From an uncultured Erysipelotrichaceae bacterium (GTDB lineage Bacteria; Bacillota_I; Bacilli_A; RFN20; CAG-826), in NCBI GenBank assembly GCA_902800025.1, contig CADCDA010000003.1:13154-77153 (forward strand): a stretch of 64,000 nt of DNA. Reading direction: 5' to 3'. The position numbers and the translations under genes are program-made. This document shows positions 2,575 to 25,051 of this stretch, piece after piece (within the stretch, counting starts at the first letter, position 1; every line of letters begins with the position of its first letter). The notes beneath the pieces were generated by a model. The model was not told the DNA's origin. It did not search any database and worked only from the letters and a program-made list of their open reading frames with translations.

Positions 2575-3801
2575 TCAATTAAGGAAGTCGCCATCTTCTA
2601 AAACGCGGTAATCGCTGATTTCAGAAAGAGGTGTTTTCTTGCCATCTCTCACGAGGTAGCAGTTATCGTAGCTTTGAACTAATCTGAGGTAGCGTTTAAC
2701 AATGACATCGACATACTTTTCATCAAGCTCAATGAGATAAGCTTTTCTTTTAAGTTGCTCCGCTGCCATCATGGTGCTACCACTACCACCAAATGGATCA
2801 AGAACGATCTCTCCTTTTCTGGAGGAGTTTTCGATGGCTTTACAAATAAGCTCAACAGGCTTCATAGTTGGATGAAGATCATTGTGCTTAGGCTTATCGA
2901 AATCCCAGCGAGTGGTTTGGGTTCTGTCGTTTGTGAAATAATGAGCAGCTCCCTCTTTCCAGCCGTAAGCGATAGGCTCTACTTGAGCGTGATAGTCTTT
3001 TCTTCCTAAAGGAAAGGTATCCTTAACCCAGCAGATAATCTGAGAAAACTTGAATCCCGCTTCTTTGATTGCAAGAAGGAAATTAAGTTCTTCAACATCG
3101 CTATGGAAAATATAGAAAGGACAGCCAGGCTTACACGCATTGAACGCATTCACAAAAGCTGCCTTTAAGAAAGAGAGGAACGATTCGCTATCCATTTTGT
3201 CGTTTTGAATCTTTCCCGCAGTTCCTTCATAGTCCACGTTATATGGCGGATCCGTAAAGAGGAGATCTACTTCTTTTCCTTCAATGAGGATATCGAAGTT
3301 TTCCTTTTTGGTTGAGTCTCCACATAAAAGCTTATGACCGTTTAATAAAAAGAGATCGCCTTTTTGAGAATATGGGTTCTCAGGAAGCTCGTCTTTTATC
3401 TCATCTTGTTCAGGTTCTTTTTCAAACTCTAAGTCGAAACCGAATTGCTCCATGTCCATCTCGATGCTGTCGAGTTCTTCCTGAAGTTTAGAGTCGATCC
3501 AGGTTGCGATAGAACTTACTTGATTATCAGCAAGCCTAAAGGCTTTGATTTGGTCTTCATCTAAATCATCCGCAATGATACAAGGTACTTTGCTAATGCC
3601 TAATTTGTGACAAGCTTTAATTCTGGTGTGTCCGCAAACGATCACGTTATCCTTATCAATAACAATAGGGATTTTGAAACCGAATTCTCTGATGGAGTTT
3701 GCTACTGCTTCCACCGCTTCATCGTTGTTTCTTGGATTGTTTTCATAAGCTTTGAGCTCTGAGACATCCTTAATCACTATCTTCGGAATCTTCACTTCCA
3801 T
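2575..3801 (-). CDS. ParB-like nuclease domain fused to N4/N6 DNA methyltransferase (DPPY)
   Basis: N-terminal ParB/Srx-like motif (GHTRIKA). Methyltransferase catalytic motif FTDPPYNVDY and SAM-binding LDPFGGSGST. The likely true start is the ATG at 3801 with a GGAGG 10 nt upstream; the ORF-track start at 3855 is read-through. Confidence 0.8.
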   Translation of the reverse strand: MEVKIPKIVIKDVSELKAYENNPRNNDEAVEAVANSIREFGFKIPIVIDKDNVIVCGHTRIKACHKLGISKVPCIIADDLDEDQIKAFRLADNQVSSIATWIDSKLQEELDSIEMDMEQFGFDLEFEKEPEQDEIKDELPENPYSQKGDLFLLNGHKLLCGDSTKKENFDILIEGKEVDLLFTDPPYNVDYEGTAGKIQNDKMDSESFLSFLKAAFVNAFNACKPGCPFYIFHSDVEELNFLLAIKEAGFKFSQIICWVKDTFPLGRKDYHAQVEPIAYGWKEGAAHYFTNDRTQTTRWDFDKPKHNDLHPTMKPVELICKAIENSSRKGEIVLDPFGGSGSTMMAAEQLKRKAYLIELDEKYVDVIVKRYLRLVQSYDNCYLVRDGKKTPLSEISDYRVLEDGDFLN

Positions 3802-4270
3802 TGAGCCATACCTCCCCGCCTGCTTCAATTTTTTTCTCAGCAAGTTCGTAGTCAAAAGATCTCTCGGAATACTCTCTTCCGAAGTTGTGACTTAGAAGAT
3901 AAACGATGGCTTTGTAGTCGCCAGGAATATGCTTCTTGTACTTGTGAGCTTTTTTCTTTTTGTTTGCTTTATTGGAGACACCCTCTTCTAAGTACTGGTC
4001 TTCTTCAGTTACTTCGTAACCTATAGCCTTTTTGTACATAGCTCCAATGAGATTTCTTTTGAGATCAAGTCTGGCATCTTGCTTTAGCCTTTCGATCTCT
4101 GGGTGTTTTCTTTTTAACTTTATGAAAGTGGCTTCGTCCATCTGTAGGCGTTCACAGATTTCCTTTTGAGTCACTAGCTTTGAGAAGCAGTCGAATAAGA
4201 AATCTCGAACCTCTGGCCACTTTCCGGTTTCGTTCCACATTTCAAAAAGGTCTTTTCTGGTTTTGCCCAT
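3770..4270 (-). CDS. hypothetical phage DNA-binding protein (HTH-like)
   Basis: Strong RBS AGGAGGAAG 5 nt upstream of ATG 4270 (MGKTRKDLFEMW...). The upstream extension to 4375 in the ORF track is probably not translated. It has an HTH-like segment, ICERLQMDEATF. Confidence 0.5.
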   Translation of the reverse strand: MGKTRKDLFEMWNETGKWPEVRDFLFDCFSKLVTQKEICERLQMDEATFIKLKRKHPEIERLKQDARLDLKRNLIGAMYKKAIGYEVTEEDQYLEEGVSNKANKKKKAHKYKKHIPGDYKAIVYLLSHNFGREYSERSFDYELAEKKIEAGGEVWLNGSEDSEDSD

Positions 4271-4393
4271 AAGACTTCCTCCTAAAATGTGTATGAAAAA
4301 ACCTCTCCTAAGAGAGGCCTTGTTTCTATAGCTTTCGCCTATTTTAACATTATCAGAAGAATGCTGCTTTTTCAATCTTCTAAAAGCTAGCTT

Positions 4394-4828: not shown

Positions 4829-6197
4829 CTTCCTTTCCTCCTAACTTGACTTTGACTGCTTCAAAGAGAGCATTTTGCATTGTCTCTTTGCCTTCTAATA
4901 CTTTTAGTATTGTTTCATCAACAGTGTCAGCGGCAACTATATGAGTAACCACTACTGTTGAGGATTTTTGACCTTGGCGATAAAGCCTGGCATTTGTTTG
5001 CTGATAAAGTTCTAAAGACCAGGTAAGTCCATACCAGCAAATAGCACTTCCACCATCTTGAAGATTTAGTCCATGCCCTGCTGAAGCCGGATGAATTAAA
5101 CCAACCTCTAGCTCACCAGCATTCCACTTTCTAAAGCTTTCGGCAGTATCTAGTTCCATATAGTTGATCTTTAGCTCATCAAGCCTTCCCTTGATTCTTT
5201 CTAAATCAGATCGATACCAGTAAGCAACTAAGAGAGGCTGACCATTTTGGGCTTCAATAATGTCTTCCAGAGCATCAAGCTTCTTAGAATGGATGATTTC
5301 AGTTTTTCCATCTTCGGTATAAACCGCTCCGTTTGCATATTGAGTAAGCTTTCCAGTAAGAACCGCAGCATTAGCTACTGAGATGTCCTTATCTTCAAGC
5401 GAGAGAACTAGTTCTCTTCTGAAATCTTTATAGGCTTTCATCTCCTTGTCAGAGAGATAAACCTTGTAAGCATTTGAGATAAGCTTTGGCATCTTGATGT
5501 GATCAATGGCTCTCATTGAAATTGTGATATCGCTAATAGAGTCAAAGATTGCTTCTTTAGCTCCTGAGATTGGTCGATAAGAGAACACCACTTCTCCATT
5601 GTGCTTATCTGGTACAAAGTACATGTTGCGGTAATGAGTGATGAATCTTCCTAAGCGTTTCCCGTAATCAAGAAGTCTGAATTCAGCCCAGAGATCCATG
5701 AGCCCATTTCCTGCTGGAGTACCAGTTAATCCAACTATGCGATCAGAATTAGCTCTTACCGCTAATAAGGATTTGAACCTTTTAGCTTTATGGTTTTTGA
5801 AGCTAGAAAGTTCATCAATTACGATCATGTCGAAGTCGAACTTATATCCGCTTTCTTCTATGAGCCAGGAAACGTTTTCCCTATTGATAATGTAGATGTC
5901 AGCTTTGCTGTTTAAAGCTTTAAGTCTAGTTTTTAAGTCGCCAACCACTACTGAAGCTTTGAGAATCTTAAGATGATCCCACTTCTTTAATTCGTTAGGC
6001 CAGGTATCACGAGCAACACGCAAGGGTGCAATTATTAATACTTTCCTTATTTCAAAAGAATCAAAGAGAAGATCATTCAATGCAGAAAGAGTAATAACTG
6101 TCTTTCCTAAACCCATATCGAGCAAAACTGCAGAGATAGGATTTGCTTCTATGAAGTTAGTCGCGAACTTTTGATATTCATGAGCTACGTATTGCAT
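4818..6197 (-). CDS. SNF2-family (SF2) helicase, phage type
   Basis: Walker A LLDMGLGKTVI, DExx box VIDELSSF, motif III LTGTP and motif VI-like QGQKS. Confidence 0.85.
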   Translation of the reverse strand: MQYVAHEYQKFATNFIEANPISAVLLDMGLGKTVITLSALNDLLFDSFEIRKVLIIAPLRVARDTWPNELKKWDHLKILKASVVVGDLKTRLKALNSKADIYIINRENVSWLIEESGYKFDFDMIVIDELSSFKNHKAKRFKSLLAVRANSDRIVGLTGTPAGNGLMDLWAEFRLLDYGKRLGRFITHYRNMYFVPDKHNGEVVFSYRPISGAKEAIFDSISDITISMRAIDHIKMPKLISNAYKVYLSDKEMKAYKDFRRELVLSLEDKDISVANAAVLTGKLTQYANGAVYTEDGKTEIIHSKKLDALEDIIEAQNGQPLLVAYWYRSDLERIKGRLDELKINYMELDTAESFRKWNAGELEVGLIHPASAGHGLNLQDGGSAICWYGLTWSLELYQQTNARLYRQGQKSSTVVVTHIVAADTVDETILKVLEGKETMQNALFEAVKVKLGGKEDVR

Positions 6198-6462
6198 CGA
6201 TTATTCCTCCTATTTGGCTTTCCTTGTCTAACACGTAGACTTGAAAACCCAGTTCTTGTAGCTGTTTGTGTCGGATTTTTTGCAGTTTTCTCGGTTTTTT
6301 CTTGGGAGCTTTTACTTCAACGAAGCCTATTTTGCCAATAGCGATGAGGATGAGGCGGTCAGGCATACCAGCAAGACCAGGAGATACAAATTTAAGAGCT
6401 AGACCACCAAGAGCTTTGATTTCCTTGCAGAGTTTTTTCTCAAGTTCTGACTCTTTTGCCAT
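6178..6462 (-). CDS. VRR-NUC domain nuclease
   Basis: A 94-aa protein with the PD-(D/E)xK-like core GMPDRLIL...VEVK that is typical of VRR-NUC. It is in its usual position, downstream of the SNF2 helicase. Confidence 0.7.
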   Translation of the reverse strand: MAKESELEKKLCKEIKALGGLALKFVSPGLAGMPDRLILIAIGKIGFVEVKAPKKKPRKLQKIRHKQLQELGFQVYVLDKESQIGGIIDAIRSS

Positions 6463-6780
6463 AGCTTGTCCTGCCTTTTCGGGAGGTTGTCCCGGATTTT
6501 TTGTGGTTTTGAGTGTTTTTCATAACAAGTTAATACAAAGTATTACTTCTTTTGGGCGGGACAAGTGGACAGGACAACCCGGATTTTTCCTATAGATTTA
6601 TAAAACATATGATTAGTTTTTTTCTTAACAATGCTTTCACATTATTAGCTAAATCTTGTCCAGGTTGTCCACTTGTCCTTAAGAACCACTTTTACTCTGT
6701 AACTTGTATACTCTTTGGCGGCCATAACCTGGGACAACTTTTCTTTCGCTTGTCCTTGTCCACCCTTCAATGCTCTTCAT
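6463..6780. repeat. iteron/inverted-repeat cluster (GGACAAG/GGACAAC motif), candidate replication origin
   Basis: At least 8 copies of GGACAA[GC] / [GC]TTGTCC lie in both orientations. A 16-21 bp inverted repeat, GGACAAGTGGACA(GGACA)ACC at 6558-6578 and GGTTGTCCACTTGTCC at 6663-6678, flanks an AT-rich 84-bp spacer. CCCGGATTTTT is repeated at 6493 and 6578. The cluster lies in the intergene between the primase and VRR-NUC genes and extends into the primase 3' end. Confidence 0.45.
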
Positions 6781-8772
6781 GATCGCTGAGATCGCATAGG
6801 AGTCGCTGGCTGTGAAATCTTCTTTTCTTTTGCCTAAGCATTCAGTCCAGATTTCAATGTTGCTAACTTCGGTCCTTTTAACAGTCCCTTCTTTATGCAT
6901 TTCATGACCTATATCGCCTAAGAAAGAGATTCGAGCCCCTATGTCCATCTTCCACCAGTCTTCAGGAAGAAGAGTATTAAGGTATTCTCTAACAAGGCCC
7001 TCTCTTTCGTCGTGTTCCATTGCACCATTGGTAGCTTCTTCTGCAGCTTGAGATAATTCTTCGCTATCTAAGAAAAGGTTTTCTCCTTTAGCGGCAATCT
7101 CCACTACTTCGGACCAGATTTGATCTATTATATCGGCAGTAAGCTCCCATGCTTTTTTACTACCGGTACCTGGAGTTCTGACAGGCCAGAAACGTCTGTT
7201 TCCTGTAATGTCTCTAAGAAAGCCGTCCTCAGCATTTGTTGTGGCAAAGAAGATGCATTGTCTAGGGTGAGAATTAACTCTTCTTCCAAAGGAAGCTCTG
7301 TATTTGTCGTCCTGCCTAGAGATAAAAGCTTTAACTTTATCAATGTCGGCCTTTTTCATGCCAGCCAACTCACCGATTTCCAAGATCCAATAACCCTGAA
7401 GCTTTTCTGCTGCGGTTTTATCGTTCATATCAGAAATGTTCAAAGAGTCCGAATACCAATCCATCCCTAGCTTTGCAATAGCTGTTGATTTGCCCACCCC
7501 TTGAGGGCCATTAAGAACCAGGATATAGTCAAACTTAATGCCTGGATTAAATACTCTTTTGTAAGCAGCGACTAGAATTTTCCTAATCACTGCTCTAGTG
7601 TATGGAGTATCTTCGGCACCAAAATAGTCGACAAGGAAGGTTTCAACTCTTGGAGTTCCATCCCATTTAGGAAGTTTTTCAAAATAATTCCTTATTGGAT
7701 GGTAGCTTCTATCATCAACGACTTTTGTTACTGCGTTGTTATAATTCTCTTTAGAGAAATTGGTATAAGTTTTGTTAATGTAGCACACAAGTTGGGCATC
7801 ATCGGCATCTCTCCAGAATCTAGATTTCGCAGGCCATGCTACAGGACCTATTATTTCTATGTCTGTTGCGAGCTCGTTATAAACAATGTTTTTAAGAAGA
7901 GGATCATTGTTAAGAATTAATTCAAGGTTTTCAGTGCAATTCACTATTGCGTGAGTTTTGTCATTCTTGATAAATTCGTCCTGCCAATTCTTATATTGTT
8001 CAGGAGGGACATAACCTTTGGTTAAAATCAAACGATTATAAAAGCTGTTTAAACTCTTCCAAATCGTGTTTTTGATTTCTTCTTCTTCAAGAGGAGGTTC
8101 ACATACCTTTTCATTTCTTTCTAAAATGAGAGAGTAGGCTTTATCTGTGTAACCATATCTTTTAACGACTTTTGCACCAAAGCTAGAAAGATAACCATTT
8201 CTATGGCCTTCGCCAACCTTGAATGAAGCATCTTTTTCATCATCAATCCACTTCATGAAATCATCAACATTGAAAGTACCTTCTATAATCTCAACATTTG
8301 GATTTATAGTCCCATAAAAGAACCTAGCTGCATCCACTGCATTAGAGTCAAAAAACGGGAAATAACTATTAACCTTCAGTTTTAAGTTTTTATAAGTTTC
8401 AATATCTGCTATTTCTTTAATTGGAAAAAGGATGTGAAATTTTGGTCTTGCGGCTTTTCCGTTCTTCGGTTTGTTGTGGCTTTTTGAGTAATGAATCATC
8501 ATTGTGACATTAGGAAACCATTCCTTAACCATTTCTAGGTCAACCCAAGTTGATGGATCATCAGAATGATCGTTATCACAATCAAGCATAAGGCAGTCTG
8601 AAGTAATGAAGTTTTTATTGCTTCTGGTGTTCTTTTCATATTCGGCCCCAACGTAATCGTGAGAAACAACTTCGATCAAATCTTCACGAGTTTTAATCTC
8701 TTTGAAATTTGGATAAAGCTTGTTTTGTTGTTTGCCTACAACATTGGCATAAAAACACTTCATAACAACCAT
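6679..8772 (-). CDS. primase-polymerase / D5(P4)-type SF3 helicase (phage replicative primase-helicase)
   Basis: Walker A VLNGPQGVGKST sits at about aa 430, and a Walker B-like ILEIGEL follows. There is a large N-terminal primase-like domain. This architecture is typical of phage/plasmid primase C-terminal D5 NTPases. Confidence 0.75.
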   Translation of the reverse strand: MVVMKCFYANVVGKQQNKLYPNFKEIKTREDLIEVVSHDYVGAEYEKNTRSNKNFITSDCLMLDCDNDHSDDPSTWVDLEMVKEWFPNVTMMIHYSKSHNKPKNGKAARPKFHILFPIKEIADIETYKNLKLKVNSYFPFFDSNAVDAARFFYGTINPNVEIIEGTFNVDDFMKWIDDEKDASFKVGEGHRNGYLSSFGAKVVKRYGYTDKAYSLILERNEKVCEPPLEEEEIKNTIWKSLNSFYNRLILTKGYVPPEQYKNWQDEFIKNDKTHAIVNCTENLELILNNDPLLKNIVYNELATDIEIIGPVAWPAKSRFWRDADDAQLVCYINKTYTNFSKENYNNAVTKVVDDRSYHPIRNYFEKLPKWDGTPRVETFLVDYFGAEDTPYTRAVIRKILVAAYKRVFNPGIKFDYILVLNGPQGVGKSTAIAKLGMDWYSDSLNISDMNDKTAAEKLQGYWILEIGELAGMKKADIDKVKAFISRQDDKYRASFGRRVNSHPRQCIFFATTNAEDGFLRDITGNRRFWPVRTPGTGSKKAWELTADIIDQIWSEVVEIAAKGENLFLDSEELSQAAEEATNGAMEHDEREGLVREYLNTLLPEDWWKMDIGARISFLGDIGHEMHKEGTVKRTEVSNIEIWTECLGKRKEDFTASDSYAISAIMKSIEGWTRTSERKVVPGYGRQRVYKLQSKSGS

Positions 8773-11348: not shown

Positions 11349-12326
11349 TTAATTTTCTCCTTCTAAATTGTTTAGTTCTTCCGCAAAGTCAGCTGCGGCA
11401 CTGTTGATTTCCTCTCTTTTATCACTGCGAGGAACGAGTGTTGGTTTGCCTTCTGGTTTAATTACATAGGGAGCCACTATCTCATTGAACTTAACTTTTC
11501 CTAATACTTTCTGGATATCGGTTAAGCTGAGAAGGGTTCTCTTGTAAGGATCAATTCCTTCGGCTTGAAGTGAAGCAACCACTGCTTCTTCATCTTTGAT
11601 GACTCTGTTAGATTTACCAGCAACGAGCTTATGGTTTTTCCAGATCTTACCCTTGATTGCTTCATTAAGGGCATAGTCTTTGATTTGATTAGCCCAGCTA
11701 ACGAGGGAGTCGATTCTGTCTAATACATCTTCAACTTCTTCATCAGTTAATAAAGGCGGTTCTTTTTGCTCATACTTTTCAAGTTCAAGAAGAGAATTCG
11801 ACTTAGCCCTACATGTGCTACGAATTCTACAAAAACGACAATTTTCACCTGGGTGGAATTCTCCCTTTCCTTCATAAGCATCAGCAGCGGCTGGTCTTAC
11901 CACTTCTTCGGCCCATTTGAGCAACTCCTCTTTAGAGATTTCACTAGTTTGGACGTTACCCATTCTTGGTTGGAAGATGCTCATCTTTACTGTCTTAAAG
12001 TCATAAAGGCAGTCAAACATTGATATTGCTCCTAAAGCGTACAATTTGGTTTGCGGATTCCCCTCACATTCCACTAAAACGTTCTTTCCGTATTTGAGAT
12101 CAATTACGTGGATCGTGTCTTTAGATAGAATTAGGGCATCTGCGGTACCAAAACTCTCAGGAACGAATTCTGATATGTCTACCTCCTGTTCGATGAATAG
12201 AACTGCATTTTTGTCATGTTTCTCGGCTTCATTAAGCTTTTCTAAGACAAATGCGACGTAGTCATCGGTATAACCATCCATTTCAGCATTGAAGTATTCG
12301 CTTTTTCTAGGATTAAGGTCTTCCAT
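11349..12326 (-). CDS. DUF2800-family PD-(D/E)xK (Cas4-like) nuclease
   Basis: C-terminal Cys cluster CRFCRIRSTC. A D...E.K-like core sits in the N-terminal half. Position matches its conserved partners. Confidence 0.6.
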   Translation of the reverse strand: MEDLNPRKSEYFNAEMDGYTDDYVAFVLEKLNEAEKHDKNAVLFIEQEVDISEFVPESFGTADALILSKDTIHVIDLKYGKNVLVECEGNPQTKLYALGAISMFDCLYDFKTVKMSIFQPRMGNVQTSEISKEELLKWAEEVVRPAAADAYEGKGEFHPGENCRFCRIRSTCRAKSNSLLELEKYEQKEPPLLTDEEVEDVLDRIDSLVSWANQIKDYALNEAIKGKIWKNHKLVAGKSNRVIKDEEAVVASLQAEGIDPYKRTLLSLTDIQKVLGKVKFNEIVAPYVIKPEGKPTLVPRSDKREEINSAAADFAEELNNLEGEN

Positions 12327-12582
12327 GTTTTCTGGCCTCCAAAGCTTTTATAAGCTTCTCTTCTGATAATGCATGAGCTACGGTGCCTTCCGCTGAAGCA
12401 GTACTATCTTGATCCTCGATAAATTCTGCTAACCTGGCGGAAGGTGTGCAAACTAGCCAAATGTGACTAGAACTTGCAGATAGAAGTGCGTGTCCTTTAG
12501 CTGCCATGTCTAATTTCAGCCGCTTCATCAAGGATCGCTTCCCATTCATCTGGATTAACTTCAGATAAGCGAGAGGCACCAT
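12313..12582 (-). CDS. hypothetical small phage protein (true start possibly internal, near 12507)
   Basis: ORF only. It overlaps the upstream ORF by 86 nt. Confidence 0.3.
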   Translation of the reverse strand: MVPLAYLKLIQMNGKRSLMKRLKLDMAAKGHALLSASSSHIWLVCTPSARLAEFIEDQDSTASAEGTVAHALSEEKLIKALEARKHGRP

Positions 12583-14477: not shown

Positions 14478-16244
14478 CTAATCTTGATAATTTTTCACGA
14501 AACCATAACGTCCGTTGTTAGGATCTTTCGTGAATTCTATTCTATTAACTCCTTCGTAATCTATGTCAGGAATATCGTTTTCGATTGCGATGATTTGCAT
14601 GTCCCTAGCGCACTCCTTCAAATAGGTGAATAAGGCTTTCTTTATTTGATCCGGAAGCTCTTCATTTCTCTTTTCTCTTAGTGACAAGATAGGAGAATCG
14701 ACTAGAAGCAATCCAGGCTTATAGTATCCTCTTTCTATCAAAACCTGCTGAAGAGCCAGTGCAAGTATCGTGTTGTAAAAACCCTTGAAGCCTTCGCCTT
14801 CATATTTCTTTTCGCTGCCGTTGATTTTAATATCAAAGTCACCATAGACGAAATCGATTTCATTTTCCCTGCCATTACATCTATCAATGCCGGCTTTCGC
14901 CTTAGTCACAAGGAAGCCAGAAAGAAGTGATTCAATGTATTCTCTAGGATTGTATTTCGTAATTTCGACCTTTATCTTCTCGACCTTCTTATGCTCTTCG
15001 ATTGCATCATTAAGGTTTTGGACGGCATTATTGTACTCAGCTTCGGAAACAACCGCGGTCTGATAGCTGTTAATCTTACTTTGAAGCTGCTTGACTAACG
15101 GCTTTAACTCATGATTGATCTCGGCATCAATAGCTTTCTTTTTGCCGACCAATTCGGAAACTTTCTCTTTTAGAGAAGCAAGCTCATCTTCGATAGCTTT
15201 TTTCGCTTCTTTCAAATCCTTTATTTGAGGTACAAGCTTCTTGAGCTCTGCTTCTGCAGCTTCTTCGCACGTCTCCTCTTCTTCTTTCTCAAGCTTGCCA
15301 TTGCAGAATGGACATCTTTGAGGCTCTTCGACATCCGAGGAATGAGCCTTTCCATCGACAATAAGCTCCATCCTTCTTAAATCCGATTCGTATTGGCTAA
15401 GGAGCGTGTTGTATTTTTCTATGAAGTTGTTAAGTTCAGCGATTCTATCGTTCAGGCCGATGATTTGGTTGGAGAGGCCTTTGCTCTCTTCGATCTTCTT
15501 GTTAAGCTCTTCATTCACTTCGTTGAGCCTTCTGATAAGCTCATCGATATCCTTTTTGAATTGCTCAGGCTCGCCAATCTTGAACCCTTCGTATGATTTC
15601 AACTTCTCAGTAAGCTTATCAACTTGCTCTTTCAGGTATTTTTCGAGCGCTTTCTTTCTGGCGGCTTTTTCAATAGGATTGCCTTCAGGATCTATGTGAT
15701 TGTCCCTGGACAAAAGGTAGATTAATGCCGATTTGAACGAAGTCGCGCTTGTGTTCTGCTCTGGGGCGAGGATACTTTCTTCTTTGCTTACATCGTTTTC
15801 TTTAATTACAAAAGTATGGGAGAACGTTCTGAAAGTTAGATTGTTCTTTTCCCAATTCTCGTTCTTAAGGATCTCCACTCTCTCGGTAAAGCCGATAAGC
15901 CTTAGCAATACATCGCTGTAGCTCATCCCATTTTCGTCTTTTTGCTTATATTCTCTGCATTCCAAACCTTGGATGTTCGTTTCTACAACCACAAGAGTCT
16001 TCTTGCCTATGGACCTAAGCAAAACAGCATATCCATCGTCGCATTCCACTCTCGCTTTGATCTCTTTTGCGTTGAAGTGCGGATTGACTTCTTTCTTTGC
16101 GCCGAAGATGAAATCGATGCAATCCAAAATGACGGACTTACCAGTATTAGATGGGCCATAAACAACGTTAAATCCATCGTCAAAGCTCACAGCAGACACT
16201 TCATCATTGTTCTGAATAAGCTGTATTTCTTTAATTCTTAACAT
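14478..16244 (-). CDS. SMC/Rad50-like ABC ATPase with central coiled coil and CxxC hook (LmuB / ABC-3C-ATPase-like)
   Basis: N-terminal MLRIKEIQLIQN...VVYGPSNTGKSVILDCIDFIFG is a Walker A. A long K/E/L-rich heptad region holds the CPFCNGK hook. The C-terminal part carries degenerate signature and Walker B sequences: EGEGFKGFYNTIL ... GLLLVDSPILSL ... IIAIEND. Confidence 0.7.
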   Translation of the reverse strand: MLRIKEIQLIQNNDEVSAVSFDDGFNVVYGPSNTGKSVILDCIDFIFGAKKEVNPHFNAKEIKARVECDDGYAVLLRSIGKKTLVVVETNIQGLECREYKQKDENGMSYSDVLLRLIGFTERVEILKNENWEKNNLTFRTFSHTFVIKENDVSKEESILAPEQNTSATSFKSALIYLLSRDNHIDPEGNPIEKAARKKALEKYLKEQVDKLTEKLKSYEGFKIGEPEQFKKDIDELIRRLNEVNEELNKKIEESKGLSNQIIGLNDRIAELNNFIEKYNTLLSQYESDLRRMELIVDGKAHSSDVEEPQRCPFCNGKLEKEEEETCEEAAEAELKKLVPQIKDLKEAKKAIEDELASLKEKVSELVGKKKAIDAEINHELKPLVKQLQSKINSYQTAVVSEAEYNNAVQNLNDAIEEHKKVEKIKVEITKYNPREYIESLLSGFLVTKAKAGIDRCNGRENEIDFVYGDFDIKINGSEKKYEGEGFKGFYNTILALALQQVLIERGYYKPGLLLVDSPILSLREKRNEELPDQIKKALFTYLKECARDMQIIAIENDIPDIDYEGVNRIEFTKDPNNGRYGFVKNYQD

Positions 16245-16686
16245 TGGTAAATCCTCCTCTTTTCACTAAGTCGGCCATGAATTTTCGAACGCTTTCATCT
16301 TTTTGAAGATCGTACTTCTCAAACGCTCCTTCTGCTGTCGACATATAATTTTCGCCGTACACATTGTCGAGCGAATCTATAAAGTTAATGCCATTATCAT
16401 TGATTTGGTACTTGAAACCATTATCTTGCGTCACATCGACAAGTCCTCTAGTAACCAATTCCTTAATCGCCATATCCACAAGTTCTTTTCTTGAGGCAAT
16501 TTCTCCAAACTTATAAGCACTATCGCCATGGAGATTGGACTCAGAAACCCCATAGTCCTTCCCATAACAGCAGATAAAGTCATAGCAGACAAATTGGTAT
16601 TTATCCATCTTGTCGAAAGGGCAATTGATGAGAAGCATCAATATCCTCAGTTGCATTTCAAATGGCGTGTTGAAAAATCTATTCAT
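16231..16686 (-). CDS. small hypothetical protein (candidate middle component / LmuC-like)
   Basis: The ATG at 16686 overlaps the upstream TAG (ATGAATAG), which indicates coupling. The 151-aa protein overlaps the ATPase start by 14 nt. No known motif. Confidence 0.5.
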   Translation of the reverse strand: MNRFFNTPFEMQLRILMLLINCPFDKMDKYQFVCYDFICCYGKDYGVSESNLHGDSAYKFGEIASRKELVDMAIKELVTRGLVDVTQDNGFKYQINDNGINFIDSLDNVYGENYMSTAEGAFEKYDLQKDESVRKFMADLVKRGGFTNVKN

Positions 16687-17695
16687 CCAGTTTCTCCTCC
16701 ACCCATTTGATTTTTTCATCATTAACTAGCATGTGGGTGATTCCTTTTCTCTCTTGGGTTTTGATCCATCCAGGGAGATGCATGAGAACGCTATTAAGAG
16801 GAATAAACGTCACCCTTTCCATTATTGCGTTCATTTTTTCTTTTCCAGAAGCATAGCTTTTGTTGCATGTGTCTTCTAGACCAGTGAAAATTTCGCTCTT
16901 TAGCTCATCGAAAAAATGATAGCCATAGGTTTCAGTGTCCCTAAGGCCAACTCTTATTGATTCGGCAGCGTAATAGTAGCCGCGTTGTTTGTTAAAATCA
17001 TCGAGACACGCGGTATCTGAAACAAGGTCGCTCTTCTTCACGAAGATAACATGTGCGGCCTCAGAGTAAACCTTTAGAAGCTCTTTGACGTAGTTTAATT
17101 CTTCGTCTTTAATATCATCTGGTGTCACGATGGCGACTGGGTGCTCCCTGCTATTGAGAATATCAATGATATCGTTCGTAGTGAGATTGTTATCGCCTAG
17201 TGATCTGTTTGCTTTTTTAGCCACAGGATTTGTTTTGTTGTCTGCGACAATCGCAAGCATGAAAACCTCTCTGAAGAAAAGCTTGTCTTCATTCCCTTTG
17301 TTGGCATTATAAAGCCCATTGACATAGCGCCTCTTTGCTATATCGATTTCTTCATCTGATTGCACCAATTCGTTTAATTCTTTGAAAATATATCGATTTT
17401 GCAGACTATTTGTCACGATTCTGTTCAAAAGCAACATTGAAATGCTTCCGTCTTTGTCGTGGCCGTTGAAGTATCTAGTCATTCCTGCCCTCAACAATGG
17501 ATAAACATCTTCGTTACCCTTATAAAGCGATCCGCACATTTTCGGAGTAAGACGGTATTGCTTATGTGATCTATCCCTGATATCCGCCTTTTTGATAGGA
17601 TCCTCCAATAAACCTTTCACCAAAAAAGTCATTTGCTTCTTTTTAGCAAATTTAGTGATTACCTTTAAAAATGATGAGAAGGTTAAGACGGCCAT
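16679..17695 (-). CDS. hypothetical 338-aa protein (candidate effector of the ATPase triad; no recognisable catalytic motif)
   Basis: The ATG at 17695 is 1 nt after the upstream TAA. No nuclease, SIR2, TIR, HEPN or Cap4 motif could be recognised by eye. Confidence 0.5.
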   Translation of the reverse strand: MAVLTFSSFLKVITKFAKKKQMTFLVKGLLEDPIKKADIRDRSHKQYRLTPKMCGSLYKGNEDVYPLLRAGMTRYFNGHDKDGSISMLLLNRIVTNSLQNRYIFKELNELVQSDEEIDIAKRRYVNGLYNANKGNEDKLFFREVFMLAIVADNKTNPVAKKANRSLGDNNLTTNDIIDILNSREHPVAIVTPDDIKDEELNYVKELLKVYSEAAHVIFVKKSDLVSDTACLDDFNKQRGYYYAAESIRVGLRDTETYGYHFFDELKSEIFTGLEDTCNKSYASGKEKMNAIMERVTFIPLNSVLMHLPGWIKTQERKGITHMLVNDEKIKWVEEKLDE

Positions 17696-17696
17696 A

Positions 17697-18392
17697 TTAT
17701 TCTTCGTTATCCTCTTTTTCCTTCTTGCGATAGACGTTTATTGGATTTCCGTCTTTATCTCTCCAGCAATTCCAGCCGTTGTCATTGTGACCTGAGATCA
17801 TTGCCGCGGCTTGGGAAACGGACGAGCACACAACATCTTCTTGTAAGATTGATCCTTTGAGCGGTAAGGACATCCTAAAAGGGACCCACGAGAATATTGA
17901 TGGAGTTTTTTCAGATAAAGGAGCACAAGTAGAATCTTTTTTAAGTGTTAGAACACCATTAGCAACGGCTAAAACACCAGAATAAGTATTTCTATCTGCC
18001 TTTGATTTAACTTGATAATAATACTCTCCATCAGGAAGCGATGAACTTTCTACCGCTTCTGTGGCTTGCTCAAACACCTCTTTCTTATCTTCTTCTGGAT
18101 ACACCACTCTTCCGTCGAGAGAAGAAAGGAGCTGACGAACCATATTGACGTCCAAAGAGAACATTTCGGTATCGCCTACTCTACTCTTGGAGAAAATTTC
18201 ATGAAGCAGAACTTCTTTTTCATCGTAGTTGTCAAGTTCTATTGCGAAGTTTCTTTTTAATCCGCTGACATTTCTATAACCATTACTTTCAAGGAATCTC
18301 ATTCTTTCCTCGAAATTGTCTGTTTTGGTTTTTCCTATTTTGACTAAGCCGCTAACAACGGTTGTCATCAAATAAATAATTCCTTTCGCCAT
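17697..18392 (-). CDS. T5orf172 (GIY-YIG superfamily) domain protein with C-terminal DUF4357-like region
   Basis: N-terminal GIIYLMTTVVSGLVKIGKTKTDNFEERMRFL matches the T5orf172 pattern (YxL..........KIGxT....R). A conserved E..LH (EVLLHEIF) follows. Confidence 0.55.
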   Translation of the reverse strand: MAKGIIYLMTTVVSGLVKIGKTKTDNFEERMRFLESNGYRNVSGLKRNFAIELDNYDEKEVLLHEIFSKSRVGDTEMFSLDVNMVRQLLSSLDGRVVYPEEDKKEVFEQATEAVESSSLPDGEYYYQVKSKADRNTYSGVLAVANGVLTLKKDSTCAPLSEKTPSIFSWVPFRMSLPLKGSILQEDVVCSSVSQAAAMISGHNDNGWNCWRDKDGNPINVYRKKEKEDNEE

Positions 18393-18406
18393 TCTCTATT
18401 CCTCCT

Positions 18407-21400
18407 TTATTTCAGCTTCCAATTAAAGAAGAAATCAGAAACAAACACATCTCTGTTGGCATACAAGATCTTGTTGATCTCTTTTTTGGAAACACCAAGA
18501 ATGTCTGCGATCTTTCCAGATTTCATTCCTTTGCCCGATTCTCTTAAAACTTTTACTATTTGATCTTTCAAAGAGAGAGGTTCTTCTTCAACTATCGCTT
18601 TTGGCTTAGCTACTACCTTTGGAGAGCTGAATTCAATAGCTTCATCTAGTAGCCTAGAGTCAAAACCAAATGCTTTGTATCCCTCAGAAACTCGTTCAAC
18701 ATATTCATCAGAAGGTCTTCCGAGTTTTCTATCCTCGTGCATAATGTAAACGAATGCTTCGATTTGGCTGAATGATCCATCATCAGCCTTAAGTTCAACT
18801 TTTATATCTTTTTTATAGTAGAAAGCAGGGTATCCTTCGTATCTATCTAGCGATGCTTCGTCATTTTCATTAACGACGAAAACACCAACAGGAACAGCAT
18901 ATCCGTTAGCCCTCTCGATTGTGAGGTAGTTTCCAGAGGAACTTCCCTTAAACATCAAGCGATAGTCATGGATAACTGATGTCCCTACTTTCCTTGCGGT
19001 TGGGCATCTGCTGGACATTTGTTCCAAATTGAGATTGCTGCCATAAGCCAAATAATAGCGAATTGGTTTCTGTGGTTTTTCTTCCACCACTAGTTCTGGT
19101 TCTTCTTCAGCAGGCTTTTCCACAGCATTTACAGGTTCCTCAACAGGTTTGCTTGAAACAAACGTTCTCGAAATTCTTGTTTGTTCTGGAGCTTCAGTAT
19201 GTGTTTCGCCTTCAATTCCAAATTCAAACCAATCAAAGCTGTTTCTATAGTTCTTTCTTACTTCTTCATTTGATAAATCTAAAGTAGATCCAATTGATTC
19301 GTTTTCAAAGAATTCTCTAATGAAGCCATTAAGGATATCTTCTTTGAAGATGTGATACTTGTTGAGAACCTCAAAGTCCTTCTTAGTGATACCGACAGCT
19401 TCTAAGAACCTATCCGGATCTGCATTCTTAAAGATTTCATCAAATGTCGTTTCTCTATAAACAGAAATATATAGGAATTCAAATAAACGAGCCAAGATGT
19501 GCTGCATGACGTTATCTGCATCTTGGATAGAAGTGTCATCGGCGTTTTTGATTACAGGTACCAAGGCTTTCTTTACTGCTTTTCTAAATGAATCACAGTA
19601 CCAGCGCTTGTAGATCTTTCCCCTATATTCCTGAGGAATGTTGTTTATGTCATTAAGATAGGCAACAACAAAGTTCTCTATCTTTTGCTTTGTTTCAGTT
19701 GTATATGTAATTTTTTCGCCGAAATGTTCTCTTACTTTGTCGACAAACTTAAGACCATCGGCTTTGCCGCATTGGAGCTTCTTAATAGGAGCGTTGACGC
19801 CTTGTTCATAGCCTTTCTTGAAGCCATTAATAAAGTATTTCTTATGGAGCTCATCTAAATCTGAAGGAATGTTTTCTTTGATGTGCTTTTCTTCGTTTGC
19901 ATCGTATTGTTCTTGGACTTCATTATCATCTAAATCAAGGTAAAGCTTACTATCAGCCATACCTAAGGCATAGCCTTTATCTCTTCCTTCTAAAGTAACC
20001 TTATCCTTAAAACTTGCATCATCTGGTTTAGGAGGGACGTCTCTATCCTTGGATTTTCCAAATTTTGCATGTGCAAAGACATGTTTAATAATGTCGCTAA
20101 CCTCCTCGTCATTGAGCATAGCGGCGATTGTATCTTCATCTTGGATCCAGGTCGTATTTTTGGTGTCCCTGATTTTCTTTGAAAGCGGCTTTCCTCTGCT
20201 ATCACCAAACTCAGCAAGCTTGAAGAATGTATCTTCGCCAATTGGGTGTTCCATGTCGCCATCCATGAAAATAGGTAAGTACTTAACGATCAGTCTAGCG
20301 ACTTGCATCTTCGTATATGCATTTTCCTTAGATGATTCTTCGGCATATTTTAAAAGAAGCGAAGCTGCTCTATCTATGTTGAAATCATATACATAACCAT
20401 CAGTTTTGAGGATCTTTCCGTTTTCAACCAATGGTGTCTGAATTCTAAATATCGCCTGGAAATATGATTCAGGGCTAGCTAAGTCCTTCAAAACGAAAAC
20501 ACTAAACCACTTCTTAACCGTGACACCTATAGTTAGCTTATTAACAGTGATTGAAATGCTGCCGATTTTACCGGTGTTTTCTCCAGCGGTCATGCTTTCA
20601 TTTAAAAATGTAAGGGCGTTTGTACCACTACCAACGTTCCTATCGGATAGATTGATGATCTGGTATCTAGAGAAATAATCATCTTCTTGAAGCAACTTTG
20701 CCATCGCATAGCATGAGTTGACAGTTGGCATGAGCCAAATCGTATGTTTGCTGTTAGGTGTAAGTTTTGGATTAGAATATGGGAAATTCTTTCCGTGCAT
20801 TGAAGCGCCTTTTATAATTTCAAGCCAAAGTTTAATCTCATCCTCATAAAGGAATTGGTATCCAAAGGCTTCGTCGTAATCTTTCCTCGTCTCAAAGAAT
20901 TTGTTCAAGGAAAAATAACTTCTTCCCAATACCTTATCATCCGAAACCACCGAATTGGCTAGCCCAGGGAACAAAGACTTCATGTCATAACCGAAGATGC
21001 TCATATCTGGGAATTGGGCATAATCTTTATTCGGGGTCCAATCGTCGTTCTCACTATTAGGATATTTCCTCTTTTGCTCATCAAAGTATGAATATGTGCT
21101 TGATGTTTTATCTGTAAATTCGCCTCTTGCTAAAGCTCTGAAAGGAGTTCCTGAGAGACAGATTGTTTTCTTTGTTTTGATTTCGAATTTCTTAACGACA
21201 TCCTTCGTGTCTTTGAGGTTTTTCTGATAGTCCTTATCAAGGTCCTCGAAAGTATCCTGAGTTCTAGCATTCCAGGCTCCAAAATGGTATTCATCGAGAA
21301 CCACCAAATCCCAATCAACATCTTGAAGCTTTTTGATTTTGTCTTTTGTTGTTTGGCTTTGGCTGTCTTTGCCTAAGTAGTTCTGCAACGATAAAAACAC

Positions 21401-22186
21401 AACGAAAGGCTCAGTCTTACCTTTTAAGGTAAAATCATTCCTTCTGATGTTGTCGTCGGTATAGTACTTATATACCTTATTTATATGAAGCAAGTCATCC
21501 TGCCATGATTTCTCAACTGCTGGGATGAATGTCAAAATTAAAATCTTATTGATATTGTTGTCTTCTGCAAACTTATAGGTCGTATAGCATTTTCCGAACC
21601 TCATTTTGCAGTTGAGAAGGAATCTTCCTCCTACTGGATGTTTGTCAAAATATGCAACTAAATCATCTATCGCTTTTTGCTGCTCAGCTCTAGGAGTATA
21701 AACAACTCTGCTGCTTCCGCTTTTTCTGATCTCGTTGAAAATAGAAATCAATTCATCAGGATGGATGTTGACAAACCACTCCTGCTCTTTTTCTTGAATT
21801 CCTGCGTACTTAGCTTTGATCTCGGCATGAACGCGATAATCTTTGAAGGATTCGCTATTGGTGTCTAAGCAGATGCCCCAATAGATGACTTCTCTGATGT
21901 CACCATAGCCTTTAGCAAATTGATCATCGGTCAAAGCTAATTCATGTTGTTGATCCTTAATTCTAGATTTGATTGCATGCCAAAAGGTCTCTCCCATTTT
22001 GCACTTGGTCATGCCTACCTTGACTCCATGATAAACGAAGTTAGGAAGTTGGTACATATAAATCAAGATCAAGTCTTGATCGGTTGTGTTTTTGTCATCC
22101 AGTTGGAAAAGAACGTCCTTTCCACTGAATCTGACTGTATCCTCAGAATTTATATTCTGGCCACGTTGGATTACTACTTCGCTCAT
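18407..22186 (-). CDS. multidomain 1259-aa protein: N-terminal T5orf172/GIY-YIG-like + SF2 (ResIII-type, DEYH) helicase + gamma-glutamylcyclotransferase (GGCT/AIG2)-like domain + C-terminal HTH
   Basis: N-terminal LILIYMYQLPNFVYHGVKVGMTK matches a T5orf172 core. Helicase motif I-like LNCKMRFGKCYT, motif II VVLDEYHF, motif III ICLSGTP and motif VI-like FQAIFRIQT. The GGCT-like segment is IRYYLAYGSNLNLEQM...IEAFVY. The C-terminal HTH is GKIADILGVSKKEINKIL. Confidence 0.7.
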   Translation of the reverse strand: MSEVVIQRGQNINSEDTVRFSGKDVLFQLDDKNTTDQDLILIYMYQLPNFVYHGVKVGMTKCKMGETFWHAIKSRIKDQQHELALTDDQFAKGYGDIREVIYWGICLDTNSESFKDYRVHAEIKAKYAGIQEKEQEWFVNIHPDELISIFNEIRKSGSSRVVYTPRAEQQKAIDDLVAYFDKHPVGGRFLLNCKMRFGKCYTTYKFAEDNNINKILILTFIPAVEKSWQDDLLHINKVYKYYTDDNIRRNDFTLKGKTEPFVVFLSLQNYLGKDSQSQTTKDKIKKLQDVDWDLVVLDEYHFGAWNARTQDTFEDLDKDYQKNLKDTKDVVKKFEIKTKKTICLSGTPFRALARGEFTDKTSSTYSYFDEQKRKYPNSENDDWTPNKDYAQFPDMSIFGYDMKSLFPGLANSVVSDDKVLGRSYFSLNKFFETRKDYDEAFGYQFLYEDEIKLWLEIIKGASMHGKNFPYSNPKLTPNSKHTIWLMPTVNSCYAMAKLLQEDDYFSRYQIINLSDRNVGSGTNALTFLNESMTAGENTGKIGSISITVNKLTIGVTVKKWFSVFVLKDLASPESYFQAIFRIQTPLVENGKILKTDGYVYDFNIDRAASLLLKYAEESSKENAYTKMQVARLIVKYLPIFMDGDMEHPIGEDTFFKLAEFGDSRGKPLSKKIRDTKNTTWIQDEDTIAAMLNDEEVSDIIKHVFAHAKFGKSKDRDVPPKPDDASFKDKVTLEGRDKGYALGMADSKLYLDLDDNEVQEQYDANEEKHIKENIPSDLDELHKKYFINGFKKGYEQGVNAPIKKLQCGKADGLKFVDKVREHFGEKITYTTETKQKIENFVVAYLNDINNIPQEYRGKIYKRWYCDSFRKAVKKALVPVIKNADDTSIQDADNVMQHILARLFEFLYISVYRETTFDEIFKNADPDRFLEAVGITKKDFEVLNKYHIFKEDILNGFIREFFENESIGSTLDLSNEEVRKNYRNSFDWFEFGIEGETHTEAPEQTRISRTFVSSKPVEEPVNAVEKPAEEEPELVVEEKPQKPIRYYLAYGSNLNLEQMSSRCPTARKVGTSVIHDYRLMFKGSSSGNYLTIERANGYAVPVGVFVVNENDEASLDRYEGYPAFYYKKDIKVELKADDGSFSQIEAFVYIMHEDRKLGRPSDEYVERVSEGYKAFGFDSRLLDEAIEFSSPKVVAKPKAIVEEEPLSLKDQIVKVLRESGKGMKSGKIADILGVSKKEINKILYANRDVFVSDFFFNWKLK

Positions 22187-22187
22187 A

Positions 22188-23855
22188 TCAAATCATCTCT
22201 CTAATTAAGGATTCGATATCCTTTATCTCAGTTTCGTCAAGGCCATACATTTCATAGAGTTCCTTGTCGCTCCACGATTTTTCATAAGTCAAATTCGGGA
22301 CAAATTTAAAATTATCTTTTGTAATATGCATAGAACTTAAGGTCAATAAAACTAAATATCTAGCAAATTTTGTCTTAATATACGATGCATAATTATTTGC
22401 CTCTTGTTCCGTGTCAAAAGCACCAAGTAATAAATAAGTAGCTGTAAACGCTTCCCCTGGTTTGTAAATTTTTATTTTTGTTGTGACATTAGACATACCA
22501 TCGCTAGCGTTATTAACACCTCCTCTATCAGGGTTTAACTGACCGATAGAAACTTTATATTTATCGATAATATCTGCTCCTTTTGGGAGGGAATCTTTTT
22601 TAATATAGAATTCGCCAGCACTAGCAATAACCTTTATTGAATTATCAAAAGGTTTTTCTTCACCTCTTGTATTGGTTGGAAGCCCAAATGGGGATATCGG
22701 ATAAACTAGCCTGTCAAGGAATACTTTTGTTTTAGCCCTTATTTTGTCAATAATTCCAATTCCGATATTGCTTCGTATAAATACATCGAAATCATTGAGT
22801 AGTCGATTCTTTGATGTTGTTTTTCCACCGACGCTACTGACGACTTGACATTTTCCTTGATGTTCAGAATCCCACAAGAAATAGCAAACGCCTCCAGCTA
22901 TATCAACGTTTGGAAAGCAGTCTCTGCTCTTTGGAAAATCAACCAATAAAGCCATTCTCTTATCATTCAGCATCTTCTCTCTGAATAAATCCATTCCCAT
23001 TCCGCCAGTAAACCATCTCGAAGGAATAATCATTGAAATATACTTCGGAGATAACGAGATAGCTTGTTCAACAAATTTGTGATAGATAGGCGTTGCCTGA
23101 ATTCCTGAGTCGTTTGTACTCAATTGATATGGTGGGTTGCCTATTATAATGTCGAATTTCATATTCTTATCTCCTTTAAAAAACCTATTTCTTAAATGTC
23201 TTTCTATAACCAAATGGTTAACATGCATAAATTCATAAGCATATTGTTCTCTTTGGTTCGCATCTAAATATTTTGAATCGTGTGCCACGCCACAATACTT
23301 GCATTTCTTTGTTTTCGGATCTATTTCATGGCTTGTATTTGGAGTTTTAATGTTCCCCTCGGTATCTGAAAACCATGTTCCGTTTCCTATGGCATATCCA
23401 TTAACAAAGTGACCGTCTGGAGCTTTTATTCCGTCACATGCTCTATTCGCTTCTGAACAATAATAAACGGTTCTTCTGGCTACATTAGCAGTGAACTTAG
23501 TTAGTCCAATAGAAAAGACCATATTTTGTAAAATGTGTTTTCTTCTTGTTTCTTTATCAGGAATAACATCTTTTAATCCTTCGTCAAGCCTAATAGCAAT
23601 TTCACGTTCAAAAATACCATTTTTTGTTGCAGGATTTAGCCACTTATAATTTGGATTATGCCAAACTTCATCAGGCAAAGAGTCAAGCATCATATCAGCA
23701 GTTTTTCTAGGTGTGAAAACTTCGTCATTGCCGACGTTTGTAATAGTTTCAAGAATGTCGAAGTGCTCTATATAATCGCTAGCTTCTTCTACAGCTGTAT
23801 TGTATTTCTTCTCAGCGCTTAGGCCTTCGCTGGTCTTTTTATCTTCATCTACCAT
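22188..23855 (-). CDS. gamma-class N6-adenine DNA methyltransferase (Eco57I/TaqI-like, NPPY) with Cys4 insertion
   Basis: Motif X DEVFTPRKTADMMLD, motif I-like WLNPATKNGIF and motif IV FDIIIGNPPYQ. It carries a CSEANRACDG...CKYCGVAHD zinc-ribbon-like insert and a long C-terminal putative target-recognition region. Confidence 0.8.
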   Translation of the reverse strand: MVDEDKKTSEGLSAEKKYNTAVEEASDYIEHFDILETITNVGNDEVFTPRKTADMMLDSLPDEVWHNPNYKWLNPATKNGIFEREIAIRLDEGLKDVIPDKETRRKHILQNMVFSIGLTKFTANVARRTVYYCSEANRACDGIKAPDGHFVNGYAIGNGTWFSDTEGNIKTPNTSHEIDPKTKKCKYCGVAHDSKYLDANQREQYAYEFMHVNHLVIERHLRNRFFKGDKNMKFDIIIGNPPYQLSTNDSGIQATPIYHKFVEQAISLSPKYISMIIPSRWFTGGMGMDLFREKMLNDKRMALLVDFPKSRDCFPNVDIAGGVCYFLWDSEHQGKCQVVSSVGGKTTSKNRLLNDFDVFIRSNIGIGIIDKIRAKTKVFLDRLVYPISPFGLPTNTRGEEKPFDNSIKVIASAGEFYIKKDSLPKGADIIDKYKVSIGQLNPDRGGVNNASDGMSNVTTKIKIYKPGEAFTATYLLLGAFDTEQEANNYASYIKTKFARYLVLLTLSSMHITKDNFKFVPNLTYEKSWSDKELYEMYGLDETEIKDIESLIREMI

Positions 23856-24490: not shown

Positions 24491-24678
24491 TCTTCCACCT
24501 CTATTCCATATTCTTTAAATAAAGGAGCGAGTTTCCTTTTAACTTTCATCGTTGGTTCACAATGACCATTCTCCCAGCGATTGATGCTTATAAAAGCAAC
24601 ACCCACTTTCTGGGCAAGTTCAGTCTGCGTTAAAAGCATTCTTTTCCTTAATAATTTTATTGCTTGAGCGTAATTCAT
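24487..24678 (-). CDS. Xre-family HTH regulator (controller/C-protein-like)
   Basis: A 63-aa protein: LTQTELAQKVGVAFISINRWENG is a classic Xre HTH. RBS GAGGTG lies 7 nt upstream. It is the first gene of the operon and overlaps the next gene by 4 nt. Confidence 0.8.
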   Translation of the reverse strand: MNYAQAIKLLRKRMLLTQTELAQKVGVAFISINRWENGHCEPTMKVKRKLAPLFKEYGIEVEE

Positions 24679-24699
24679 TATTGCACCTCAACGAATTTC

Positions 24700-24750: not shown

Positions 24751-24797
24751 AAACTACAGATACTCCTGGAAAACAACCTAAATGCCCAATTCGCAAT

Positions 24798-24974: not shown

Positions 24975-25051
<77 letters not shown>

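Follow-up and report, generated by a model that had tools for sequence, protein, structure and literature searches.

A probable SaPI-type replication origin downstream of a VapE-type primase-helicase gene in a gut or rumen Bacillota prophage, with a proposed residue-to-base rule for its iterons

What is the function of the short repeats that crowd the end of a prophage primase-helicase gene and the gap that follows it? The locus (positions 6463-6780) lies in a 64-kb stretch of DNA that was analysed as a whole and is referred to here as the window, and an earlier note on this DNA had put the locus forward as a candidate origin of phage replication. Judged from the sequence and its homologies, the region is very probably (at roughly 0.85) a prophage replication origin of the SaPI/PICI Rep-iteron type, on which the primase-helicase encoded upstream would act. 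This kind of origin is already known from the staphylococcal pathogenicity islands (SaPIs); the part that may be new is a rule connecting residues of the initiator with bases of its repeats. A limited literature search found no published residue-level specificity code for the VapE/SaPI-Rep family.

The repeats are strongly concentrated at this locus. The motif GGACAA[GC] occurs 15 times across the window, and ten of these copies fall within 6465-6761. Its core, GGACA, is present in 11 copies in 6463-6780, where 0.31 would be expected at the rate of the remaining window (Poisson P = 5.6e-14), and any other 318-nt stretch of the window contains at most three. Ten of the 11 cores read GGACAA; seven are found on the gene strand, which is the minus strand, and four on the opposite strand, in keeping with the more than eight copies in both orientations that had been described. 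The cluster extends over the last 84 nt of the VapE gene and the entire 216-nt gap behind it, so that its earlier placement at and past the 3' end of the gene was correct. Followed along the gene strand, it is composed of two direct copies and one inverted copy within the gene, three direct copies, the AT-rich core, three inverted copies, an 85-nt spacer with a palindrome and two further direct copies (Table 1). The GC content of the core is 19.7%, compared with 35.6% for the whole window; the AT-rich segment of 84 bp in the earlier note was thus real in composition and approximate in length, the core measuring 71 nt. A perfect inverted repeat of 13 nt (6559-6571 and 6666-6678) brackets the core with 94 nt separating its arms, and a second pair of 12 nt is nested within it (6572-6583 and 6659-6670, 92% complementary). 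Because these two pairs are combined, composite arms of approximately 25 nt result, each of which corresponds to three iterons. The inverted repeat of 16-21 bp that had been reported is likewise genuine, its stated length being approximate and its perfect part 13 nt.

Two other signals were considered in the same interval. Plus-strand open reading frames at 6266-6595 and 6552-6782 run antisense across the iterons and the AT-rich core and were taken as spurious. A terminator-like hairpin with a T-run was seen on the plus strand at 6478-6496, antisense to the operon and partly built from a proximal iteron, and the scan for promoters and terminators placed it at chance level (one found, 1.1 expected).

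Table 1. Coordinates of the repeats, origin elements and flanking genes in the window
Feature	Position	Strand	Details
VapE-domain gene	6679-8772	-	697 aa; fused primase / Rep-type initiator-helicase; stop codon 6679-6681
Beta-hairpin wing codons (residues 671-691)	6700-6762	-	predicted; R677 = 6742-6744, R685 = 6718-6720
In-gene iteron block	6732-6761	-	direct 6757-6761 and 6751-6755, inverted 6732-6736; codons W671-T-R-T and V679-V-P681
Left iteron arm	6655-6678	-	three direct copies: GGACAAGT GGACAACCT GGACAAG; begins at the first base past the stop codon
AT-rich core	6584-6654		presumed DNA unwinding element, from composition; 71 nt, 19.7% GC
Box CTATAGGAAAAA in the AT-rich core	6584-6595	gene strand	common to distant relatives
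Right iteron arm	6557-6583	-	three inverted copies, reading TTGTCC TGTCC ACTTGTCC along the gene strand
Palindrome TAATAC-TTT-GTATTA	6531-6545		between right arm and proximal block; subfamily of the window only
Proximal iteron block	6465-6492	-	direct copies GGGACAACC and AGGACAAGC, the latter overlapping the VRR-NUC ribosome-binding region
Gene-sense GGACAA copies	6757-6761, 6751-6755, 6674-6678, 6666-6670, 6657-6661, 6488-6492, 6467-6471	-	none of the seven degenerate
Antisense GGACA cores	6559, 6567, 6572	opposite gene strand	
Antisense in-gene GGACA core	6732	opposite gene strand	
VRR-NUC-type endonuclease gene	6178-6462	-	94 aa; closes the origin gap on its far side; Pfam VRR_NUC E 1.6e-4, slightly under the family cut-off

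The protein encoded immediately upstream consists of a primase-like region (residues approximately 1-250), a VapE-type ATPase (approximately 360-580) and a predicted C-terminal winged-helix domain (approximately 600-697). It matches the Pfam family VapE-like_dom (E 1.4e-74), and residues 261-612 match the sequence of SaPI1 Rep in PDB entry 7pds (E 5.7e-69). PHROG assigns the protein to DNA helicase and DNA primase families and its first 250 residues to primase/helicase N-terminal families. D64, D66 and H99, which are nearly invariant among 50 homologues, are compatible with a primase motif of the archaeo-eukaryotic type. The C-terminal domain (CTD) alone gave no match against PDB sequences; a family profile aligned with 7pds at E 5e-99, and this alignment reached residue 422 of 477, entering the first half of the CTD and covering its motif R-x-x-V-S-x-x-E-I-W. 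An AlphaFold2 model (mean pLDDT 84) predicts CTD helices at 638-645 and 655-667, followed by a beta-hairpin of strands 671-680 and 684-691 with the turn P681-G682-Y683 (wing pLDDT 82-89), and the predicted arrangement is that of a winged helix. When this structure was used as a Foldseek query, the top PDB match was again 7pds ('PriRep1 with dsDNA'; about 455 columns, 31-33% identity, target-normalised TM 0.73-0.78), aligned over essentially the full 7pds chain, and the next matches were African swine fever virus AsfvPrimPol, the NrS-1 helicase region and SaPI5 PriRep5. The gene, which the earlier note had taken for a primase/helicase, can thus be assigned to the VapE / SaPI Rep family on the concordant evidence of Pfam, PDB 7pds, Foldseek and PHROG. 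R677 and R685 are located on opposite strands of the predicted wing, and the i/i+2 alternation together with the cross-strand pairing suggests that R677, V679, R685 and R687 would share one wing face.

By definition, a SaPI origin directly follows rep on its downstream side and contains 6-12 penta- or hexanucleotide iterons (Qiao et al., PMC9371898), arranged about an AT-rich centre with at least two iterons per side in opposite directions (PMC9371898; Ubeda et al. 2007 cited there). The locus conforms in each respect. Its 11 GGACA cores fall into the range of 6-12 iterons of 5-6 nt, the first iteron begins at the base past the rep stop codon (6678) in the directly adjoining gap, and three direct and three inverted copies face each other across the AT-rich core. 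As initiator it has a Rep helicase that belongs to the VapE / D5-like SF3 AAA+ family (Pfam, 7pds, Foldseek), with a C-terminal winged helix predicted by AlphaFold2, Foldseek and the profile, and the role of this domain in origin specificity is supported by the covariation described below. The opinion that the site is one usual for an origin was therefore well founded, and iterons opposed about an AT-rich centre match the published arrangement (PMC9371898).

All genes neighbouring the cluster are encoded on the minus strand. According to Pfam, they are transcribed in the order DUF2800 / PD-(D/E)XK nuclease, Enc34-type SSB, family-A DNA polymerase (PolA), VapE, the gap, VRR-NUC, SNF2 helicase, DUF1492 regulator and ParB-N/methylase fusion, and the module also carries terminase-small-like and late-regulator-like genes (Pfam, PHROG). 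The VRR-NUC gene, whose product was assigned by PHROG as an endonuclease (E 5.7e-29), keeps its syntenic position in most of the related loci. Because the element has its own polymerase, SSB and accessory genes (PolA, SSB, nucleases and SNF2 helicase), it is not a satellite (phage-inducible chromosomal island); the region is classed as a phage or prophage origin working like a SaPI origin and not as a PICI. A BLAST search against phage records gave no match across the gap and weak similarity (65-73% identity) to the coding flanks in a few gut phages.

Several observations were made on the surrounding genes. The DUF2800 / PD-(D/E)XK gene (11349-12582, minus strand) is split into two overlapping open reading frames, of which 12313-12582 covers profile positions 1-55 and 11349-12326 positions 67-368. 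A frameshift, a sequencing error or decay to a pseudogene could account for the split, and given this gene the prophage may be defective. Further minus-strand genes encode a protein of 262 aa limited to the N-terminal SAM synthetase domain (617-1405), a fusion of a ParB-N domain with an N6/N4 DNA methylase (2575-3855) and a terminase-small-subunit-like protein (3770-4375) whose reading frame overlaps that of the methylase by 86 nt. A defence-like cluster (14478-25051, minus strand) adjoins a tRNA gene (24978-25051) and includes an AAA ATPase of 588 aa, an ABC-3C CTD6-domain protein, a 1259-aa GGACT/AIG2-domain protein and an Eco57I-like methylase. Host DNA probably begins at the UvrC gene, since this gene follows the defence-like cluster and the tRNA at 25140-26936.

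The position of the proximal copies raises the question whether the repeats are operator sites only, through which VapE or another regulator of the module controls the downstream genes (VRR-NUC, SNF2 and others) at the level of transcription or translation, with the origin lying elsewhere. These copies overlap the ribosome-binding region of VRR-NUC, a conserved palindrome, which may be an operator or promoter element, separates them from the right arm, and initiators often autoregulate. However, oppositely directed iteron sets around a core of 20% GC at the 3' side of a Rep homologue constitute the defining layout of a SaPI origin, the 64-kb window has no other iteron cluster, and the covariation points to the wing of Rep and not to an HTH regulator. 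Regulation is also compatible with origin function, and an auxiliary role of this type is included in the main explanation. Operators alone are therefore considered unlikely for the cluster as a whole; for the copies near the ribosome-binding site a purely regulatory role is possible, but such a role leaves unexplained the inverted sets on either side of the AT-rich core.

Related loci were used to distinguish what is conserved in the cluster from what is particular to the window. Scans of viral and genome collections yielded 123 loci, 77 of them distinct, whose products are related to the VapE-domain protein over its C-terminal two thirds (about 60% identity). A short repeat of the form NNACA is located at the same place in all of the approximately 200 related loci, its two variable bases differing between relatives. 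The comparison with relatives that had been suggested as a check thus supports the origin reading, as nearly every related locus examined has repeats. In the 77 distinct loci, the motif is repeated 4-18 times in both orientations and differs between loci, the classes being GGACA(A), (G)TGACA(A), GGAACA(A), GAAACA(A) and (T)AGACA(A) with the common form NNACA. The gap between VapE and VRR-NUC measures 215-255 nt in most relatives and about 300, 440 or 790 nt in some. Direct copies, a core of 10-25% GC with a 40-nt minimum at 7-25% GC, inverted copies and an auxiliary block make up the common layout, which every relative has at the same place with respect to vapE. Five closer relatives (L124-L128, 70-94% protein identity) have the exact layout of the window, including the in-gene block and the palindrome. 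The in-gene block is kept in L124 and L126-L128 and switched to AGACA, together with all other copies, in L125; the proximal block consists of two or three copies at the same place in all five. All six pairs of the palindrome are kept in 5-6 of six sequences with a variable centre, and the palindrome is absent from more distant relatives.

Two further features were noticed in this comparison. In the commonest type of locus, two boxes, TTTCTATATAGTACAAAAA and CGCGCGTATAGGAAA, lie inside the AT-rich core and do not vary with the iteron; they were seen 110-200 nt past the VapE stop codon in L074, L062, L004, L040 and some 30 further loci, a set with different iterons and a protein identity of only approximately 60%. 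Of the two boxes, the second alone is retained in the window, as CTATAGGAAAAA. These boxes could be a primase start or a melting site. At one locus (L077), a 617-nt gap past the VapE stop codon contains two tandem copies of the entire origin unit, with an offset of approximately 384 nt and 18 and 14 core copies.

The emphasis that the earlier note had laid on a long inverted repeat was not sustained by the relatives. Across the core, the longest perfect inverted repeat has a median length of 9 nt in 76 relatives, which is about one iteron, and the 13 nt of the window are the longest. In type-A loci the left copies are adjacent and the right copies approximately 42 nt apart. A hairpin or cruciform was consequently rejected as the conserved feature, arm lengths and layouts being variable across relatives. 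The same data bear on the proposal that the locus acts as an RNA element of the polycistronic transcript, in which the two arms would form a stem around an AT-rich loop and serve as a processing site, attenuator or translational regulator. The gene-strand RNA does fold more stably than shuffled sequences (z = -4.97), and RNAalifold applied to six close relatives returned a stem with two-sided changes in 11 of 30 pairs, which is compatible with a hairpin. Yet the stem is made of iterons in opposite orientation, so a switch in specificity alters both arms and mimics compensation, and direct copies that have no pairing partner, in the in-gene and proximal blocks, switch as well. The short median repeat and the unequal arms of the type-A loci also disagree with a conserved stem, and pairing within RNA cannot account for covariation with protein residues. 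Rfam gave no match in 6000-7200 at E <=10 except two chance-level ones outside the gap; its gathering score was reached nowhere in the window save by a tRNA elsewhere, and nowhere in 19 relatives. An RNA element is accordingly regarded as very improbable.

The origin reading is also supported by the observation that the sequence of the repeat co-varies with two residues of the C-terminal wing. The last 130 residues were aligned for 88 non-redundant loci, on which the rules were derived. Ranked by normalised mutual information with the repeat class, the two best columns of this alignment were those of R685 and R677. In the R677 column, Arg is present in all 64 xGACA loci and a residue other than Arg in all 23 xAACA loci. 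In the R685 column, Arg or Lys accompanies G at base 1 in 53 of 57 loci, and Leu, Gln, Met or Pro accompanies T or A in 29 of 30. Edge-disjoint pairs differing in the repeat were then taken from a neighbour-joining tree of the protein with its tail removed; for base 2 all nine of these pairs were concordant, and for base 1 14 of 16 were. With both rules left unchanged, an out-of-sample set of 80 further metagenome loci, 50 of them new and non-redundant, agreed with the base 2 rule in 50/50 and with the base 1 rule in 49/50 loci. This second batch alone included a TTACA class (L136, L175, L179, L183 and L191), in which the R677 position is taken by Ala, Pro or Val and the R685 position by Leu or Gln. 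Over the combined 140 non-redundant loci, the two-by-two counts are 89/0/0/51 for Arg at R677 against G at base 2 and 88/2/5/45 for Arg or Lys at R685 against G at base 1, the latter rule having seven exceptions (e.g. Gln with G, A or T). Neighbouring tail positions are equally linked to the origin, and they carry information of at most 0.43 for base 2 and 0.33 for base 1, compared with 0.94 and 0.61 at the two wing positions (140 loci).

Individual pairs of loci illustrate the switch. L125, whose protein is 83% identical to that of the window, has approximately 13 copies, all of which are changed from GGACA to AGACA, in-gene ones included, along with a change from YGRQR to YGQQR in a tail that is otherwise typical of the subfamily of the window (VV-GYG-QR). 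The same switch distinguishes L082 from L078 in another subfamily. L063 and L066 differ by 1% in their backbone, yet have different tails and iterons. Part of the covariation counts may reflect exchange of modules instead of independent co-evolution, because tail and origin are adjacent and can be inherited or swapped as one block; moving together, they would have undergone fewer independent events than the backbone tree suggests. Function is nevertheless favoured over hitch-hiking, since Arg at the first position is kept amid diverse neighbours whenever base 2 is G and is variously replaced otherwise, since the R to Q change in L125 goes with a switch of all its copies, and since L082 and L078 repeat that change in another subfamily. 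It is therefore somewhat more probable than not that the two wing positions, R677 and R685, directly read iteron bases 2 and 1. With moderate confidence, the code proposed is Arg at R677 for G at base 2, Arg or Lys at R685 for G at base 1; T or A at base 1 goes with Leu, Gln, Met or Pro at R685. We also lean towards the view that this near-digital wing code sets the specificity of the origin, and that the last approximately 25 codons form one swappable cassette with the origin, the iterons of this subfamily being embedded in the wing codons themselves.

This embedding is visible in the window at 6730-6762 (minus strand), where iterons occupy codons (W671-T-R-T and V679-V-P681) of the very wing that is predicted to read them. 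In L125 (4450-4573), the iteron switch from TTGTCC to TTGTCT turns Pro (P681) into Tyr in the wing turn. As iterons reside within wing codons, a switch of specificity at the DNA level would also alter the predicted reader.

The covariation with the VapE tail also bears on whether the cluster could be a partition (centromere-like) site, a packaging site or the target of the ParB-domain methyltransferase (2575-3855). Short repeats clustered in both orientations are also present at parS-type and pac sites, and the ParB-N domain protein is encoded 2.6 kb away. However, this protein is fused to an N6/N4 methylase, no ParA was seen among the Pfam-annotated genes, the repeats follow the tail of the neighbouring VapE protein across 140 loci, and they keep their place next to vapE in every relative. 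A role of this kind is thus extremely unlikely.

For the replication origin, we infer a mechanism that comprises binding, melting, a double-hexamer geometry, roles of individual residues and an auxiliary function. The C-terminal winged-helix domain of the VapE-type protein would bind the GGACA(A) iterons through its beta-hairpin wing, with R677 reading the G at base 2 and R685 the G at base 1, and the invariant residues Q686 and R687 probably reading the invariant ACA. The oppositely oriented iteron sets that flank the 71-nt core would place two hexamers face to face, the AT-rich core would melt, and the helicase would load itself without a separate loader. Primers would be made by the N-terminal primase domain, and the family-A polymerase and the Enc34-type SSB would continue replication. 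The in-gene block and the block near the ribosome-binding site would be auxiliary binding sites, which may couple occupancy by the initiator to expression of the downstream genes.

These results place a probable origin in a prophage replication module that is very widespread in gut and rumen Bacillota and poorly described (DUF2800 nuclease, Enc34-type SSB, PolA, VapE, VRR-NUC and SNF2 helicase). The two-residue, two-base rule can be tested directly by changing one residue and one base. If true, it would predict cross-activation or insulation of origins among related phages and satellites, allow the design of orthogonal Rep-ori pairs and provide residue-level detail on how SaPI-type Reps read their iterons, beyond what the solved structures show.

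Among known systems, the alpha protein of satellite phage P4 likewise unites primase and helicase and binds short iterons through its C-terminal domain; P4 differs in its two separated regions with type I iterons, ori and crr. The (G)TGAACA of some relatives resembles, when read on the other strand, what we take to be the P4 iteron, TGTTCACC; this resemblance is mentioned as a lead only. Short opposed repeats at AT-rich or easily melted DNA and double hexamers are also known for SV40 large T antigen and papillomavirus E1 (PMC7581432, PMC9371898), which belong to eukaryotic viruses and differ in that their origin-binding domain has another fold and is N-terminal to the helicase. Cch2 of SCCmec, a D5/MCM-like helicase that loads itself, binds short direct repeats at a putative origin in the gap that follows its gene (PMC7581432). 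By description, this system resembles the one proposed for the window in its self-loading helicase, its repeats in the downstream gap and its A-family polymerase, and differs in having three iterons only, in needing direct repeats alone for binding and in its CCPol-MP primase arrangement (PMC7581432). In Enterococcus phage Abitsa, a putative origin was assigned by analogy to SaPI5 on purely computational grounds (PMC13517437). As described, this true phage is similar in its PriRep5-like self-loading helicase and in its repeats around an AT-rich region, and different in its seven 10-bp repeats and lytic lifestyle (PMC13517437).

The closest counterparts are the SaPI/PICI systems represented by SaPI1 Rep1 (7pds) and SaPI5 PriRep5 (7ola). 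In SaPI Rep, the winged helix of the CTD recognises the iterons, and the self-loading 3'-5' helicase binds and melts the origin without ATP; SaPI5 has a fused primase-Rep, and only a single-stranded pentanucleotide is visible in the 7pds structure (PMC9371898). The window differs from these systems in that its module is a phage-type cassette with its own PolA, SSB, PD-(D/E)XK nuclease, VRR-NUC and SNF2 helicase, in its host, a low-GC gut or rumen-type Bacillota instead of Staphylococcus, and in its iterons inside the wing coding sequence, its block near the ribosome-binding site and its palindrome; its CTD is too divergent for detection by sequence alone. It shares with them a homologous VapE-type initiator-helicase with a predicted C-terminal winged helix, fused to a primase as in SaPI5, and it matches every DNA-level feature of the SaPI origin.
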